Part shown: in pieces, positions 13,143-64,000 of the stretch | How positions within the stretch are numbered: position 1 is the stretch's first letter | Layout of the letters: each line of letters starts with the position of its first letter | Origin: Escherichia coli | GTDB lineage: Bacteria > Pseudomonadota > Gammaproteobacteria > Enterobacterales > Enterobacteriaceae | DNA: 64,000 bases | Assembly (NCBI RefSeq): GCF_030013595.1 | Contig: NZ_CP122770.1 | Strand: one strand, 5' to 3' | Translations under genes and position numbers: made by a program | The notes under the pieces: model-generated | Database searches by the model: none | What the model was told of the DNA's origin: nothing | The model's input: the letters and a program-made list of their open reading frames with translations, nothing else

Positions 13143-13736
13143 ATGGGAAAAAATCAGGAAGAAAGGAAAACTCCCGTCATTGTGGTGAAAAAACGTCGTA
13201 CTTTTTCGCCACCGTCCTTATCCGAAAAAACAGATATTATCGCACCTGTATTTACTGAACAGACGGCAGAATCAGCCCCCGCCGGAATAAATTCATCTGC
13301 CGTCGAAACACATATCCCCGAAGCGCCAGCCAGGAAGAAGAAAAAGAAAAGACACCGTTTTCCACGTCCCTCCCACTGGACCCGTGAGTATACTCACGAG
13401 TGCGTGGAAAAAATAAAGGCCCTGTTTCCTCATCTTCGTGCTGAAGGTGGTGGATTTATTCCCCTGAAAATTGGCATAAGCAATGATATTTCGGCATTTC
13501 TGGCAGAAAGCCCGGATACAGAACTGTCCATGGACGAATGGTTCTGTGCAGTGTCCTGCATCACCTCCCGCCGCGTATATCTGCAGCGGACCTCTGTCGC
13601 CGGCGTCCCTCGTTATGGGCTGGATGGTCATCCCGATGGGCAGGTCTCAGAAACTGAAGCACAGAGTGCTGTTCAAAGACTGGCGATAATAGAACAACGG
13701 TGGCTCAGGATGAAGGAACGGCAGACTGAGCAATAA
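13143..13736 (+). CDS. FinO/ProQ-domain RNA-binding protein (FopA-like)
   Basis: Basic N-terminal half (KKKKKRHRFPRP) followed by a FinO-like domain pattern (..EKIKALFP..GGFIPLKIGISNDI..RRVYLQRTSVAGVPRYGLDGHPDGQVSE..); a hairpin GAGTCTGcttaCAGACTC follows the stop. Confidence 0.65.
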   Translation: MGKNQEERKTPVIVVKKRRTFSPPSLSEKTDIIAPVFTEQTAESAPAGINSSAVETHIPEAPARKKKKKRHRFPRPSHWTREYTHECVEKIKALFPHLRAEGGGFIPLKIGISNDISAFLAESPDTELSMDEWFCAVSCITSRRVYLQRTSVAGVPRYGLDGHPDGQVSETEAQSAVQRLAIIEQRWLRMKERQTEQ

Positions 13737-16599: not shown

Positions 16600-16896
16600 C
16601 AGAGATAAAGACTTTCCCTGCGGCGAAGCAACGCAGGGGATTAAATAATGGGGTTAAGACTATATTGCAGGTTTGCTGTTTCAGGTTTGCAGCTTCTTAA
16701 AGTTTTTTGTTTGCGGATTTATGTGGATAACTGAAACAACGTGGCCACGTTCTGATGACTGATGCGTGGTTTTATGGGCAGATATGCCCCTCTGAGGGGA
16801 TTTAAGGTGATTACTGCGGATTTTGGGCTGAGCGGAACCAGCGCCGAAAGCCCCGGAGGGGCTGGTGATGATTCAGTGCTGAGGGAATGGTGCTGT
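16600..16896 (-). other. IncI1-type replication origin region (CIS/oriV) downstream of repZ, with a DnaA box
   Basis: DnaA box TGTGGATAA at 16721-16729 (complement of TTATCCACA); GC-rich hairpins (AGCCCCTCCGGGGCT, CCCCTCAGAGGGG) directly after the repZ stop; position matches ori location in IncI1/IncB replicons. Confidence 0.5.
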
Positions 16897-17928
16897 CTAG
16901 TGCGGCGGTGGGGCAGCCAGCGTCAGTTCAAGCTGACGCAACTCCCTGATGGCCAGTCGCTTCAGATGGTCATCGGAACAAAAATAGGCTTCATCCGGCG
17001 GCAGACGCTTCCTGAGATATTCTGCCATCTCATGAATCTGCTGGTCGGCAGGCAGTTTCTTCAGGCGTCTGGCGCGCTTACTGGCTGCTGCTTTCGCACG
17101 ACGGTGTTTCAGCGCATCCTGACTGCGCTGCAGATACCAGCGTTTTCTGGCCGCATGTACGGAGATATCTTCATCCTCACGCAGAACACCTTCCCGAATG
17201 AGCTGCTGGCGGATTTCACTTTCACGCAGTCGTTTCTGCTGCTGTTCGTGAAGTTTTACCATGTCGACGCCCAGCATCTGCCAGCCTGCCGGTGTTATCC
17301 AGACGTAACGAGGCAGACGCTGGCGGGTTTCACGGTCCCACAGGGTTTCATCTGAAACACCCAGCACACCAAAACGTACCTGTTCGGCCAGCAAACGGGA
17401 AAGGCGGGAGACCGTCACTTCCAGTTCCGGAATAACCTTCCCCTTGCTGTCTTTCGGGCTGATTTCTCTGGCCAGACGGGAAACACTCATGCCTACGGTA
17501 TGTGTGCCCGCATCACTGAAGCTGACCAGAACCGGCCAGACGGCATCGAGGAGGCGTTGTTTTTCCGGACGGAAAGCATATTTGCGACCGGCATACGTTC
17601 GTTTCTGCACGTAAAAAGGATGCAGAGACATGTGCATGCGCAGGCTCTGCTCGCCGGTCACCGGGTCCTTTTTCACCAGACGGTTGTAGGCGTGCCCGAG
17701 CTGCCCGCTCAGCGCCTTATAGCGCTCAGGACGATACCAGGACGGATTTTCGCATTTGGGTTTGGTGGAGTGCTCACCACGACGACGCTTCGTGCGCTTC
17801 CTTTCCGGTTCAACCAGGAAAGTGGTCGCCCTTCCCGCTTCATAGTCTTCCCAGAAACGGATCTGCTCTTCGGGTGCTAACTGACTCCAGTGTACTGCGT
17901 TATATGGAGTATTCTTCAGACCTGCCAC
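16897..17928 (-). CDS. repZ: RepZ replication initiator (IncI1/IncFII RepA1 family)
   Basis: Characteristic RepZ sequence (..GLKNTPYNAVHWSQLAPEEQIRFWEDYEAGRATTFLVEP...); no in-frame ATG near the 5' end, so the start is placed at the GTG at 17928 next to the repY stop; exact start uncertain. Confidence 0.9.
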   Translation of the reverse strand: MAGLKNTPYNAVHWSQLAPEEQIRFWEDYEAGRATTFLVEPERKRTKRRRGEHSTKPKCENPSWYRPERYKALSGQLGHAYNRLVKKDPVTGEQSLRMHMSLHPFYVQKRTYAGRKYAFRPEKQRLLDAVWPVLVSFSDAGTHTVGMSVSRLAREISPKDSKGKVIPELEVTVSRLSRLLAEQVRFGVLGVSDETLWDRETRQRLPRYVWITPAGWQMLGVDMVKLHEQQQKRLRESEIRQQLIREGVLREDEDISVHAARKRWYLQRSQDALKHRRAKAAASKRARRLKKLPADQQIHEMAEYLRKRLPPDEAYFCSDDHLKRLAIRELRQLELTLAAPPPH

Positions 17929-18005
17929 AAGCTGTCGCTTATGGCGGAGCGATTGTGCCGTGTATTTATACACTGCACAGGGTTGAATCTCTGGTACGGT
18001 TTCAT
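17916..18005 (-). CDS. repY: RepY leader peptide (29 aa), translationally coupled to repZ
   Basis: ATG at 18005, MKPYQRFNPVQCINTRHNRSAISDSLWQV, stop TGA at 17916-17918 overlapping the repZ 5' region, as expected for the IncI1 repY-repZ arrangement. Confidence 0.7.
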   Translation of the reverse strand: MKPYQRFNPVQCINTRHNRSAISDSLWQV

Positions 18006-18019
18006 TATACTTTACCCGT

Positions 18020-18091
18020 ATTCTGTGAGGCCCCCACTATCTTTCGTCGTTCCGCCAAGTTCGTAAGAAAGATAGTGGGGGTTTTCCTTTT
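18020..18091 (+). ncRNA. inc: Inc antisense RNA (replication-control countertranscript) with terminator hairpin
   Basis: Perfect 15-bp stem CCCCCACTATCTTTC / GAAAGATAGTGGGGG (18031-18081) with loop containing CCGCCAA (complement of the rep-mRNA rUUGGCG loop), followed by TTTTCCTTTT, on the strand opposite the rep mRNA leader. Confidence 0.55.
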
Positions 18092-18378
18092 ATGGCTTCC
18101 GGAACATCTTCAGTCTTCTGACTTACTGCCCGTACATGCCATCTCTCCTGAATGCCTTATGGCGCATTCTGCCGTCCGGCTTTCGCCGGTTTGCTCCACA
18201 GAGTGCCACTCTCTGCACAGCTAATAACAGCCGAAATATACCCGCTTTACGTTAATTTGAAAAGCATTACAACGATCTCTTCTCTTCCAGTGCCTCCTCA
18301 CTGATACCTCTAATAAGTTAATCTTGACCTACGTCAAAAAAATAAAATCTATTTTTAAAAGCAGATTTTTCTGCTTTA

Positions 18379-18745: not shown

Positions 18746-19081
18746 TTTGACGCTTTTTTGTATGTTTTTTAAGCTGTTAGTTGACTCGGTGCGTTATACT
18801 AAGTACCCTTTACTGGTCACAGGCAAAACTGTGATCGGGCGTAGGAACCCGCGTAGTCATCGTCGGCGCAGAAGTTAATTTCTTCATTTGGCGTCGTTTT
18901 TTGCCATACCATAAAGACAGGAACTTGTATTTCTTGTCGTCATCTATGGTAGCTCAGGCGGGGCAGGCATTAGCCTGGCCGGTTTCCGATGACGCCGGTA
19001 TTCCTACCCCCGTCTGGGCTATCACCAATGAGCGTAGGAACTCGGTGATAGCGTTTTTAGTTGTCATCGGAGACCTTTGCT

Positions 19082-19369
19082 ATGTCACCTCAACTGATAC
19101 AGAAACTCCCGGCCATCACTCTGTTGGAAGGCATGTTTCCCGAGCTATCAACAAACCAGCTTAAAGTCTGCGTTTTTTACGCAATGGGTGTTCCTTACGA
19201 CGCCATTGCTCAGAACTGTCGGCTTTCTCCCGAAACGGTACGAACCTACCTGAAGCGAAGCCTGAAGAATTTAAATCTGGAAGGATATGATGCACTTCGC
19301 TCTGCTGTGCTGATGCGAACTTTCGTTTTCATGATTAGCAATACAGCTAAAGAAAACGAAAAAATGTGA
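19082..19369 (+). CDS. traA: LuxR/GerE-type HTH transcriptional regulator (first of four genes in the traABCD position)
   Basis: 95-aa protein with C-terminal HTH pattern (..NQLKVCVFYAMGVPYDAIAQNCRLSPETVRTYLKRSLKNL..); GGAG RBS 9 nt upstream; name by synteny. Confidence 0.55.
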   Translation: MSPQLIQKLPAITLLEGMFPELSTNQLKVCVFYAMGVPYDAIAQNCRLSPETVRTYLKRSLKNLNLEGYDALRSAVLMRTFVFMISNTAKENEKM

Positions 19370-35286: not shown

Positions 35287-36441
35287 ATGCCGTCTCCACG
35301 CATCCGTAAAATGTCCCTGTCACGCGCACTGGATAAGTACCTGAAAACAGTTTCTGTTCACAAGAAAGGGCATCAACAGGAGTTTTACCGGAGCAATGTT
35401 ATCAAGCGATATCCCATTGCCCTTCGGAATATGGACGAAATAACAACCGTTGATATTGCTACATACAGAGACGTTCGTTTAGCAGAAATCAACCCCCGAA
35501 CGGGTAAACCCATTACAGGTAATACTGTACGTCTTGAACTCGCCCTTCTGTCATCTCTGTTCAATATTGCTCGTGTTGAATGGGGAACCTGTCGTACTAA
35601 CCCGGTTGAACTGGTTCGCAAGCCGAAAGTATCCTCCGGACGAGATCGCCGGCTAACGTCTTCAGAAGAACGTCGCCTTTCTCGCTATTTCCGCGAAAAA
35701 AATCTGATGTTGTATGTCATTTTCCATCTTGCCCTTGAGACAGCCATGCGGCAGGGCGAAATACTGGCCTTACGTTGGGAGCACATTGATTTGCGCCACG
35801 GTGTGGCTCATTTACCTGAAACCAAAAACGGTCACTCACGGGATGTTCCTCTGTCCAGACGTGCCCGTAACTTTCTTCAGATGATGCCCGTTAATCTCCA
35901 CGGCAATGTTTTTGATTACACCGCATCCGGCTTTAAAAATGCCTGGAGAATAGCCACACAACGACTTCGCATCGAGGACCTGCATTTTCACGATCTACGG
36001 CATGAAGCAATAAGCCGCTTCTTCGAACTGGGTAGCCTGAATGTAATGGAGATTGCTGCAATATCAGGACATCGTTCCATGAATATGCTGAAACGGTATA
36101 CTCATCTTCGTGCATGGCAACTGGTCAGTAAACTTGATGCCCGCCGGCGGCAGACACAAAAAGTGGCAGCATGGTTTGTGCCGTATCCTGCCCATATCAC
36201 GACCATCAATGAAGAAAATGGGCAGAAAGCGCATCGTATTGAGATCGGTGATTTTGATAACCTTCACGTCACTGCCACAACGAAAGAGGAAGCAGTTCAC
36301 CGCGCCAGTGAGGTTTTGTTGCGTACACTGGCCATTGCAGCACAGAAAGGCGAACGTGTCCCATCTCCCGGAGCGTTACCTGTTAACGACCCTGACTACA
36401 TTATGATTTGCCCTCTGAACCCGGGCAGCACCCCGCTGTAA
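35287..36441 (+). CDS. rci: Rci, shufflon-specific tyrosine recombinase
   Basis: Tyrosine recombinase catalytic residues (R..HDLRHE..H..Y); start MPSPRIRK gives 384 aa; directly adjacent to the shufflon. Confidence 0.9.
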
Positions 36442-62371: not shown

Positions 62372-62459
62372 TGTTAGATACAGACTGTCTTTTCCCGCCC
62401 AGAGCAACCAACTCTGTAGCGGAACAGTAAAAAAGCCGACCTCACCAGTCGGTTTTTTT
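62372..62459 (+). ncRNA. Candidate small RNA unit 1 (promoter to intrinsic terminator, about 88 nt)
   Basis: Sigma70-like promoter TTGACA (62337-62342), 17-nt spacer, TAGAAT (62360-62365); hairpin CAGAG-caaccaa-CTCTG; terminator GCCGAC-ctcacca-GTCGG plus T7 (62435-62459). Confidence 0.35.
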
Positions 62460-62618
62460 ACATCTGTTGTTTCTGCAAATCCGCCCCACCATGCCTGTTA
62501 TACCGGGAAGACTCATGTTCTGGTTACCGTCATCACGACAGAAGTGTCGCCAGACAGTGCTAACCTGCGGATTACAAGGGTGGTTGTTATCAAATGAACA
62601 GAACACTATTATAAGAAC

Positions 62619-62705
62619 GTTAGCTGAAAAGAGATTTCCTCCAGTCAGGGCCACCAACTCTGTAACGGAACAGTAAGAAAACCGACCTCATCAGTCGGTT
62701 TTTTT
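62619..62705 (+). ncRNA. Candidate small RNA unit 2 (paralogue of unit 1)
   Basis: Promoter TTGTTA (62584-62589), 17-nt spacer, TATTAT (62607-62612); conserved 3' block CCACCAACTCTGTAACGGAACAGTAA and terminator (62681-62705). Confidence 0.3.
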
Positions 62706-62771
62706 ACATTTATTACTTCTGAGTAACGACAAGCTGTACGTAGCAAGCTCCCTCTGGCGTGGAGGACGTCA

Positions 62772-62915
62772 GCGGGCTACTATAATGTTGTCTAGGCATT
62801 ACAGTAGAGCCCTTGGTTGATTGATAGAACAATCTCCCGGGGCTTTCACAAACGCTTTCAGCTTACAGCCTCAAGCTCCCCACCGCGATTTTGACGACTT
62901 TCGTATTTTGCAACA
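62772..62915 (+). ncRNA. Toxin-less duplicate of the pnd antisense/leader region (putative orphan Sok/PndB-like antisense RNA)
   Basis: About 85 percent identical over roughly 150 bp to 63735-63900, including the promoter-in-hairpin GGGCTACTATAATG...CATTACAGTAGAGCCC; the minus strand has only a truncated 28-codon mok-like ORF and no hok-like ORF. Confidence 0.4.
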
Positions 62916-62990
62916 ATATCAGGTGGTCAGCCTTTCCCGTAAACTTATGGCATGTTGCATTAATCAGGTAGAACAAATTATCATTTTTAG

Positions 62991-63078
62991 CGTCAGTTAT
63001 AGACAGCTCTTTTCTGGTCAGAGTCATCAACTTTGTAGCGTAACAGTAAAAAAGCCGGCCTCACCAGTCGGTTTTTTT
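62991..63078 (+). ncRNA. Candidate small RNA unit 3 (paralogue of units 1 and 2)
   Basis: Promoter TTGCAT (62955-62960), 18-nt spacer, TATCAT (62979-62984); hairpin CAGAG-tcatcaa-CTTTG; terminator GCCGGCctcaccaGTCGG plus T7 (63053-63078). Confidence 0.35.
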
Positions 63079-63233
63079 ACGTCTTTTGTATCTGCAAAAT
63101 CCGCCCCGCCATGCCCGTCACACCGGGGAAACTCATGCTCTGAACCTGAACCAGCCATCTCAACTTTGCCGTCTTCTGAAAAAACTGGCACATTCAGTTC
63201 GATAACTACCCATAAATACAGAGAGAAAATCCG

Positions 63234-63485
63234 ATGTCAGAAAAGTGGAGTAAAGAATTCGACTCTTGCTTTCAGGTGGGGAGCATAGAAGAAATTGCCG
63301 ATGCTCTCGAGAAACGCAGCGGAAGCGAGGAAAACGCGTTAGCCATGCTGGCAATGACAGCCTTCACACTCATGACCCGACGTGGTATCTGCGAAATGCA
63401 GAACGTGGCCCCCGATGGCAAAGGCATTCGGCTGGAGCTAATCGGCTTCAGGGGAAATGAAACAATACCGGATACGCTTCATTGA
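63234..63485 (+). CDS. Hypothetical 83-aa protein
   Basis: ORF followed by hairpin GCGGCGGCAG-aaaacc-CTGCCGCCG (63523-63548) that could also terminate the convergent pnd transcript; RBS weak. Confidence 0.3.
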   Translation: MSEKWSKEFDSCFQVGSIEEIADALEKRSGSEENALAMLAMTAFTLMTRRGICEMQNVAPDGKGIRLELIGFRGNETIPDTLH

Positions 63486-63556
63486 AGAAGAAAGGGCGCA
63501 ATGAGGTCAGCCTTCGCAACAAAGCGGCGGCAGAAAACCTGCCGCCGTGTTGCCCG

Positions 63557-63709
63557 TTAACGTTTAACTTCGTAGGCTAACGTTGCCACAAGCACTGTGT
63601 TTCCCTGCTGGAGCCGGAGTACGCAAAGCGAATCCCTCACCATCCAGACAAAACACAGAATCGTCACACAGATGACGATTAACATCATTAAAAACGTTCG
63701 CTGTGGCAT
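63557..63709 (-). CDS. pndA: PndA, Hok/Gef-family type I toxin (50 aa)
   Basis: MPQRTFLMMLIVICVTILCFVWMVRDSLCVLRLQQGNTVLVATLAYEVKR, matching the Hok family TM helix, SLC motif and LAYE C-terminus; found by manual translation (below the ORF-track cut-off). Confidence 0.9.
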   Translation of the reverse strand: MPQRTFLMMLIVICVTILCFVWMVRDSLCVLRLQQGNTVLVATLAYEVKR

Positions 63710-63767
63710 CATAGCCCCTCCATTGCCTTACGGCGGTTATCGGGCTACTATAATGTTGTCGAAGCAT
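63564..63767 (-). CDS. pndC: PndC, Mok-like overlapping reading frame needed for pndA translation
   Basis: ORF in another frame overlapping nearly all of pndA and ending 7 nt before its stop; start taken at the internal ATG (63767) within the antisense target region; start uncertain (ORF-track ATG at 63848). Confidence 0.45.
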   Translation of the reverse strand: MLRQHYSSPITAVRQWRGYDATANVFNDVNRHLCDDSVFCLDGEGFALRTPAPAGKHSACGNVSLRS

Positions 63768-63815
63768 TACAGTAGAGCCCTTGGTTGATTGATAAAAAAA
63801 TCTCCAGGGGCTTTC
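63748..63815 (+). ncRNA. pndB: PndB/Sok-like antisense RNA with promoter embedded in a hairpin
   Basis: TATAAT at 63748-63753 on the strand opposite pndCA; predicted transcript overlaps the pndC start region and ends at stem CCCTTGG...CCAGGGG followed by CTTTCT. Confidence 0.45.
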
Positions 63816-64000
63816 TGCTGTATACCGTCCACAAAACGCTTTCGGCATACAGCCTCAAGCGCCCGCAGCTATTCTAACGACTTTCGTATCTGCAACAATC
63901 CTTTTATCACACGGCTAATTCCTCTGGTTAGCTCTTATCGCCTGCAAATAAATTTTTAACCTTTCCGTTTGATTTAAATTCCAGAAATGGAGACTTTGTC

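Follow-up and report, generated by a model that had tools for sequence, protein, structure and literature searches.

A GTG start for repZ in a probable inc-repY-repZ copy-number control module of the IncI1 type

Where does translation of a plasmid replication initiator begin if the 5' end of its reading frame offers no ATG? This question is raised by a locus on the Escherichia coli contig NZ_CP122770.1 (RefSeq assembly GCF_030013595.1), of which we analyzed a stretch of 64,000 nucleotides, here called the window; all positions refer to its numbering. A first-pass annotation of this DNA had proposed that the initiator gene, repZ, is read from a GTG that is coupled to the leader peptide RepY and controlled by the antisense RNA Inc, as in IncI1 plasmids, with the exact RepZ start to be confirmed. 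We put the probability that copy number is controlled here by the inc-repY-repZ module of a plasmid of the IncI1 type at roughly 95%. The elements and their coordinates (Table 1), the identity to reference plasmids, the predicted folds and the patterns of conservation and covariation described below are direct observations.

Table 1 Features of the repZ control region and associated elements in the window
Feature	Position	Strand	Remarks
repZ, replication initiator, 343 aa	16897..17928	-	GTG start, TAG stop; PGAP CDS of 100%-identical records begins at the same base
repY, rep leader peptide	17916..18005	-	29 codons, ATG-TGA; named repY in HG428759
Structure III hairpin, predicted to hide the CGCC arm, weak SD and repZ GUG	17921..17947	-	MFE and centroid folds
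Putative distal pseudoknot arm CCGCCA (core CGCC)	17942..17947	-	Complementary to UGGCGG in the loop of stem-loop I; within the invariant block CCGCCATAAGCGACAGCTTGTGGC
Stem-loop I of rep mRNA, Inc RNA target	18031..18081	-	Perfect 15-bp lower stem, 21-nt upper part
Apical UUGGCGG (UUGGCG kissing motif and GGCG proximal pseudoknot arm)	18052..18058	-	Plus strand CCGCCAA = Inc RNA loop
Inc antisense RNA gene (putative), ~70 nt	18019..18088	+	Both ends inferred; 5' tail, long hairpin with CCGCCAA apex, run GGGGGTTTTCCTTTT
Candidate Inc RNA promoter: TTGAAT, 17 nt, TATACT	17983..18011	+	Within repY, opposite strand; consensus scan only
Candidate rep mRNA promoter, Prep-like: TTTTCA, 17 nt, TATATT	18235..18263	-	Consensus scan only
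Rfam RF01087 PK-repZ, repZ regulatory leader	17941..18089	-	Stem-loop I to distal pseudoknot arm; Rfam search
fopA (yafB) homologue, FinO-domain RNA chaperone, trans-acting accessory	13143..13724	+	tblastn alignment boundaries
Perfect DnaA box TTATCCACA	16722..16730	-	Exact pattern match; 167 nt 3' of the repZ stop, expected CIS/oriV region

As read from the sequence and the ORF listing, the RepZ frame on the minus strand extends over 343 codons from GTG 17928-17926 to TAG 16899-16897. The leader repY on the same strand has 29 codons (MKPYQRFNPVQCINTRHNRSAISDSLWQV), from ATG 18005-18003 to TGA 17918-17916, and a direct check of these coordinates bore out the earlier description of a 29-codon leader whose TGA overlaps the RepZ frame. 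The first base of GTG 17928 lies 10 nt 5' of the T in this TGA, and the overlap between the two genes amounts to 13 nt. The earlier claim that repZ is without an in-frame ATG holds for its 5' end, but not for the frame as a whole, which has ATGs at codons 98 and 100 (17637 and 17631), codon 98 being the first. Likewise, the GTG 10 nt before the repY stop is located where it had been placed, but is not the only candidate start: a second in-frame GTG occurs at 17973, 15 codons 5' of GTG 17928 and within repY, and the frame is open up to TAG 18039. CTG 17919 is also in the RepZ frame. The predicted protein matched the NCBIfam profile NF040977 (RepA_IncFII_LM) with 315.3 bits (cut-off 70) over residues 58-335, and Pfam IncFII_repA with 22.7 bits, slightly below the cut-off of 22.9. 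By the NCBIfam match, which resolved the borderline Pfam score, RepZ is assigned to the IncFII/IncL-M/IncI family of initiators.

Of the two GTG codons, the mechanical ORF lister chooses GTG 17973 and reports a product of 358 aa (16897-17973). If this were the start, RepZ would be initiated inside repY and translated independently of repY termination, and the frame, being open to TAG 18039, would allow it. Existing annotations are on 17928 instead. In 100%-identical records, the 'plasmid replication initiator RepA' called by PGAP is 1,032 nt long and starts precisely at window position 17928; R64 and ColIb-P9 are laid out alike in RefSeq, with rep at 455-1486, and in pSTM709 (HG428759), which was annotated by hand, repY at 378-467 and repZ at 455-1486 lead to the same GTG. 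We also aligned the window with five more divergent I-complex leaders, which MOB-suite types as IncI-gamma/K1 or IncK2/Z. The block CCGCCATAAGCGACAGCTTGTGGC, the TGA 10 nt 3' of the GTG and the TTGGCGG loop were invariant among the six I-complex leaders. Three I-complex relatives (L008, L009 and L010) carry an in-frame TAA 13 codons 5' of the conserved GTG, between the two GTG positions, with no ATG, GTG or TTG between this TAA and the conserved GTG, which is thus the first possible start in these leaders; the upstream GTG of IncI1 can therefore not be the start of the family. In leaders of IncI1 and I-gamma the frame of GTG 17973 stays open, and in B/O/K/Z-type relatives a TAA closes it, so that the N-terminal extension is not conserved, whereas GTG 17928 and its block are invariant. 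As the NF040977 profile covers nothing before residue 58, it neither fixes the N-terminus of RepZ nor lends support to added N-terminal residues, and the literature puts the GUG in a hairpin beside the leader stop (PMC4705826). A start at GTG 17973 was rejected because of the in-frame TAA in the relatives, and we consider it very improbable. These comparisons indicate that RepZ should be annotated from GTG 17928, with 343 aa, and not from the start of the longer mechanical ORF. It is an equally long shot that GTG 17973 might yield a minor RepZ isoform, longer by 15 residues, which would escape the coupling to repY and the pseudoknot; if true, such an isoform would provide IncI1-type replicons with a low, Inc-insensitive basal supply of initiator.

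The first-pass annotation had also considered that an ATG start may have been displaced by a sequencing error, and had suggested an alignment with the ColIb-P9 and R64 leaders. The window is 100% identical to both plasmids over positions 18182-17850, which take in the Inc target and repY as well as the junction and the initial repZ codons; three substitutions relative to R64 and ColIb-P9 occur further upstream (18331, 18210 and 18189). A megablast search with positions 16850-18300 returned 1,858 plasmid records, mainly conjugative plasmids of Escherichia and Salmonella, 641 of them at an identity of at least 99%, and the 241-nt leader was found in 1,150 plasmid records at this level of identity. 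That a normal ATG was destroyed or shifted by an error in sequencing or assembly is suggested only by the odd look of a GTG start overlapping an upstream ORF, and is contradicted by the base-for-base identity with R64 and ColIb-P9, whose records start on the same GTG, by the 1,150 records and by the invariance of the GTG in the aligned IncI-gamma, K, B/O and Z-type leaders. On the grounds of the reference identity and of more than 1,000 records, we rejected a sequencing error masking an ATG, the odds of which appear negligible. Instead, the absence of a 5' ATG is a designed feature, since in the published work on ColIb-P9 the rep GUG is masked by a hairpin and activated by repY and the pseudoknot.

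Each of the eight leaders compared has a 29-codon leader ORF with its TGA at an identical position, and the length, start and stop position of this ORF are kept even where the leader sequence varies. No family was assigned to the 29-aa RepY in a Pfam search. In Tn-seq experiments on the related plasmid pESBL-EA11, insertions were rare in repY and repZ, and both were required for maintenance of the plasmid (PMC4288162). The conserved length and positions of repY and the rarity of insertions in it argue against the reading, to which we give practically no credence, that repY is an unrelated small ORF and that repZ uses an internal or non-canonical start: CTG 17919 and ATG 17637 (codon 98) are in frame, but initiation at codon 98 would cut about 40 residues from the RepA-profile region (residues 58-335). 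The CTG 17919 and internal ATG starts were rejected.

Upstream of repZ, the arm CCCCCACTATCTTTC (18081-18067) is the exact reverse complement of the arm GAAAGATAGTGGGGG (18045-18031) over 15 bp, and the two form the lower part of stem-loop I. They are separated by 21 nt (TTACGAACTTGGCGGAACGAC on the mRNA strand), the center of which is TTGGCGG, or CCGCCAA on the plus strand. Hence, the perfect 15-bp stem reported by the first-pass annotation was recovered, but CCGCCAA is the apex of the 21-nt stretch and not a 7-nt loop. On the mRNA strand, stem-loop I folds with -27.6 kcal/mol (z = -5.3), and the Inc strand with -32.9 kcal/mol (z = -6.6); in both cases, none of 200 shuffled sequences folded as well. 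Among the six I-complex leaders, compensatory changes were present in 7 of the 19 predicted pairs of stem I, and the UUGGCGG apex was invariant (6/6). Within this apex, GGCG would serve as the proximal arm of a pseudoknot (PMC4705826).

On the plus strand, the Inc hairpin is followed by the U-run TTTTCCTTTT, and a size of about 70 nt has been reported for Inc RNA (PMC7491321). A putative Inc RNA gene with a promoter-like site, a hairpin and a U-run is therewith present on the strand opposite to the leader. The position of the candidate rep promoter (18263-18235, minus strand) is consistent with an mRNA that starts 5' of the Inc target. In an Rfam search, the leader matched PK-repZ (RF01087) with 194.5 bits (gathering score 44) and an E-value of 7e-46, covering model positions 1-150 of 150. 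Given this E-value and the 100% identity with the reference plasmids, the assignment to PK-repZ is far beyond chance.

The junction between repY and repZ was predicted to form a second hairpin, structure III, in which positions 17947-17937 (CCGCCAUAAGC) pair with 17932-17924 (GCUUGUGGC) and 17922-17921, so that the CGCC tract and the GUG would be buried in one hairpin. The z-score of this fold is modest (-2.2); the fold agrees with the 'inhibitory secondary structure' depicted in Fig. 1B of PMC4705826. The prediction suggests that the repZ GUG is sequestered together with its Shine-Dalgarno (SD) sequence in an inhibitory hairpin. CCGCCA (17947-17942) and UGGCGG (18057-18052) in the loop of stem-loop I are complementary at six bases, and CGCC is the distal pseudoknot arm according to PMC4705826. 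Both arms are invariant in the six leaders, and covariation thus gives the pseudoknot no support here.

For the function of these elements we drew on the review by Asano (2014; K. Asano is an author of the primary papers on ColIb-P9 and pMU720). In ColIb-P9, rep initiates at a GUG, and a stable structure masks this GUG together with a weak SD; a ribosome that terminates at the leader-peptide stop uncovers CGCC, which then pairs with GGCG of the Inc-target loop, and the resulting pseudoknot keeps the start accessible for re-initiation. Inc RNA makes its kissing contact with that loop too, in competition with the pseudoknot, and a fuller duplex subsequently blocks the SD of the leader. Changing the GUG to AUG weakened both the dependence on the pseudoknot and the repression by Inc (PMC4705826). 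FopA, a FinO-domain protein, is reported to have Inc RNA as its main ligand and to accelerate the pairing between Inc and repZ RNA (PMC7491321).

We infer coupling, activation by the pseudoknot and use of the GUG in the window from these published experiments on ColIb-P9 and IncB, which were carried out on identical or near-identical sequence. The rep mRNA would be transcribed from the minus strand and comprise stem-loop I with its UUGGCGG apex, the 29-codon repY and repZ, with the repZ GUG (17928), the weak SD and the CGCC tract buried in hairpin III. A ribosome translating repY and terminating at the TGA 10 nt beyond the GUG would melt hairpin III. The freed CGCC may then pair with the loop GGCG of stem-loop I to form the pseudoknot, which would keep the site open and allow re-initiation at the GUG to produce RepZ, and RepZ would in turn fire the downstream origin. 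Inc RNA of about 70 nt, transcribed from the plus strand, would kiss the loop of stem-loop I in competition with the pseudoknot and block repZ at once, before extending the duplex and thereby also blocking translation of repY. The plasmid-encoded FinO-domain protein FopA probably speeds this pairing; the fopA homologue of the window shares 91% identity over 194 aa with the ProQ/FinO protein of ColIb-P9 (tblastn) and matches Pfam ProQ with an E-value of 8e-13. An iteron search 3' of repZ with a repeat finder returned only short two-copy repeats.

All sequence-level features that define a ColIb-P9-type control region thus appear to be present, and no sequence was seen that contradicts the inc-repY-repZ control model. 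The IncI1 logic put forward by the first-pass annotation, that is, a GTG-initiated repZ coupled to repY and an Inc RNA on the opposite strand, is in line with the identity to ColIb-P9 and R64, the full-length RF01087 match and the annotated start, and the confirmation of the RepZ start is in effect already available in the literature (PMC4705826). The control switch has already been worked out in detail, including what the GUG does, and represents the ordinary, textbook copy-number switch of IncI1 plasmids: GUG start, leader coupling, pseudoknot and Inc RNA were dissected in the 1990s, and a curated Rfam family exists. The value of the present assignment lies in annotation, as repY and the inc gene are absent from most automatic annotations.

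The body of repZ adds a second aspect to the typing of the replicon. A repZ-based scheme groups plasmids into subgroups with more than 95% identity within a subgroup (PMC6361801). The repZ coding body of the window is 92.9% identical to R64 and ColIb-P9, which is below this value for IncI1 (I-alpha), and 97.6% identical to p92-9000, which is typed IncI-gamma/K1. The differences from R64 cluster at nt 300-600 and 800-900 of repZ, and the first 200 nt are nearly identical. Vice versa, the Inc RNA and its target, the determinant of incompatibility, are identical to the IncI1 references. MOB-suite types identical records as 'IncI-gamma/K1'. Since the Inc RNA is identical to that of IncI1 and the repZ body is closer to p92-9000 than to R64, the replicon is, as judged from these identities, IncI1 by its control RNA and a member of the IncI-gamma/K1 cluster by its repZ body. 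This mosaic is not new, being common to pESBL-EA11, pSTM709 and hundreds of further records; the combination of an IncI1 control module with an IncI-gamma/K1-type repZ body accounts for conflicting replicon typing.

A separate observation concerns DNA that lies 5' of repZ, about 0.9-1.1 kb from its start at GTG 17928. Here, positions 18942-19029 of the plus strand matched the Rfam family of C4 antisense RNAs (RF01695) with 77.5 bits against a cut-off of 45; the c4-a1b1 and isrK matches at 18803-18901 were sub-threshold. Positions 18943-19058 are 82% identical to the cI (immunity RNA) region of phage P4. pESBL-EA11 aligns to the window without gaps (pESBL coordinate = 54453 minus window coordinate). 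By this alignment, 'Hft', a 270-bp region described by Yamaichi et al. (pESBL 35394-35663), corresponds to window positions 18790-19059 and thus contains the C4-type RNA. Transposon insertions in Hft increased transfer about 20-fold and traA::lacZ expression about 50-fold, and deletion of Hft abolished traA expression; the authors did not settle on a mechanism and named small RNAs as future work (PMC4288162, PMC5801416).

Two elements of the C4-like RNA that are unpaired in the Rfam consensus structure, TCCGATGAC (18985-18993) and TTCCTAC (19001-19007), have complements upstream (GTAGGAA 18841-18847 and GTCATCG 18856-18862) as well as downstream (GTAGGAA 19034-19040 and GTCATCGGA 19063-19071). 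The downstream GTCATCGGA overlaps the traA SD (GGAG 19069-19072; ATG 19082). The observed number of complementary 8-mers was attained by only 0.55% of shuffled flanks. The arrangement corresponds to the a1/b1, c4, a2/b2 layout of the immI region of phages P1 and P7. Of three substitutions specific to R64-drd11, 18953 falls into the outer stem of the C4-like RNA, 19043 lies 3 nt beyond the downstream GTAGGAA, and 19256 creates a stop in traA. A limited literature search found no published link between Hft and a C4-type RNA. A C4-type RNA inside this unexplained 'superspreader' locus, with its control over traA and the frequency of conjugation, may matter more than the replication switch.

Among known systems, the copA-tap-repA region of the IncFII plasmid R1 shares with the window an antisense RNA directed against a leader, a leader peptide and, as initiator, a member of the RepA_IncFII_LM family. 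The leader peptide of R1 is tap, the translation of which is coupled to that of repA. R1 is not known to need an activating pseudoknot, and its antisense RNA works by blocking translation of tap. The CopA-like RNA model (Rfam RF00042) matched positions 17996-18089 with 38.2 bits only, below the cut-off of 60, which sets the window apart from the IncFII type.

Closer to the window is the repB-repA-RNAI region of the IncB plasmid pMU720 with its IncK, IncZ and IncB/O relatives. In these plasmids, too, an antisense RNA is directed against a UUGGCG stem-loop, the leader has 29 codons, rep initiates at a GUG located 10 nt ahead of the stop of the leader, and the distal arm is CGCC; coupling by re-initiation in pMU720 is cited in PMC4705826. 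These plasmids differ from the window in stem I and in the codons of the leader, and in K2/Z-type relatives the N-terminus of Rep diverges directly after the leader stop. The IncB-type family PK-repBA (RF01089) reached only 41 bits here, under its cut-off of 45.

The closest likeness is to ColIb-P9 and R64 (IncI1, I-alpha). Not a single base separates the window from these plasmids in the Inc gene, stem-loop I, repY with its stop, structure III, the GUG and the two arms of the pseudoknot. Differences exist in the repZ coding body, with only 92.9% nucleotide and 95% protein identity, so that about 5% of the RepZ residues are not those of ColIb-P9, and in the DNA 3' of repZ, where an ungapped comparison with R64 gives an identity of about 86%. 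The gene order is the same, and the gene for FopA is present in the window as well.

Part of the window corresponds without gaps to 'Hft', the superspreader locus of the IncI1 plasmid pESBL-EA11 in which transposon insertions raise transfer, and it bears a C4-type antisense RNA. Two elements of this RNA, TCCGATGAC and TTCCTAC, are predicted to be unpaired, and complements to them occur upstream (18841-18862) as well as downstream (19034-19071), where one of them, GTCATCGGA, overlaps the Shine-Dalgarno sequence of the adjoining traA gene. Two SNPs specific to R64-drd11 lie inside the C4 stem (18953) and next to a candidate target site of the RNA (19043). Taken together, the C4-type RNA, its complements, including that over the traA Shine-Dalgarno sequence, and the two SNPs suggest that Hft insertions would destroy a repressor RNA, derepressing traA and therefore conjugation. 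Among the papers in the library searched, none connects Hft with a C4-type RNA.

Near the window end (62374-63864), the sok and AgrB matches taken together point to type I toxin-antitoxin loci, of the hok/sok kind and related ones, arranged in tandem.

Features located in the window
Feature	Position	Strand	Basis
FopA (YafB) homologue, FinO/ProQ-domain RNA chaperone	13143-13724	+	sequence identity and domain
Perfect DnaA box TTATCCACA	16722-16730	-	167 nt downstream of repZ stop
C4 antisense RNA, phage P1/P4-type	core 18942-19029 within 18790-19084	+	Rfam RF01695 (77.5 bits, cut-off 45)
AgrB antisense RNA	62374-62461	+	Rfam, gathering level
AgrB antisense RNA	62620-62707	+	Rfam, gathering level
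sok antitoxin RNA	62739-62880	-	Rfam, gathering level
sok antitoxin RNA	63707-63864	-	Rfam, gathering level

The rep mRNA leader differs from those of R64 and ColIb-P9 by three substitutions. One of these, C instead of G at 18189 (minus strand), changes GCGGCGAAAGCCGG into a perfect small hairpin, CCGGC-GAAA-GCCGG, 5' of the Inc target. FopA, reported to bind Inc RNA and to speed up Inc-repZ pairing (PMC7491321), has a homologue here with 91% identity to the ColIb-P9 protein. Downstream of the initiator gene repZ, the DnaA box is positioned in the expected CIS/oriV region, where a repeat finder gave short two-copy families but no clear iterons.

By sequence comparison, the replicon is a mosaic. 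Inc RNA, the leader peptide repY and the junction (17850-18182, minus strand) are 100% identical to R64 and ColIb-P9, while the repZ body (16897-17928, minus strand) shares only 92.9% identity with these IncI1 references and is closer to p92-9000 (97.6%), typed IncI-gamma/K1. MOB-suite likewise types plasmids identical to this one as 'IncI-gamma/K1'. An IncI1 control region joined to an IncI-gamma/K1-type repZ can thus result in conflicting replicon typing.
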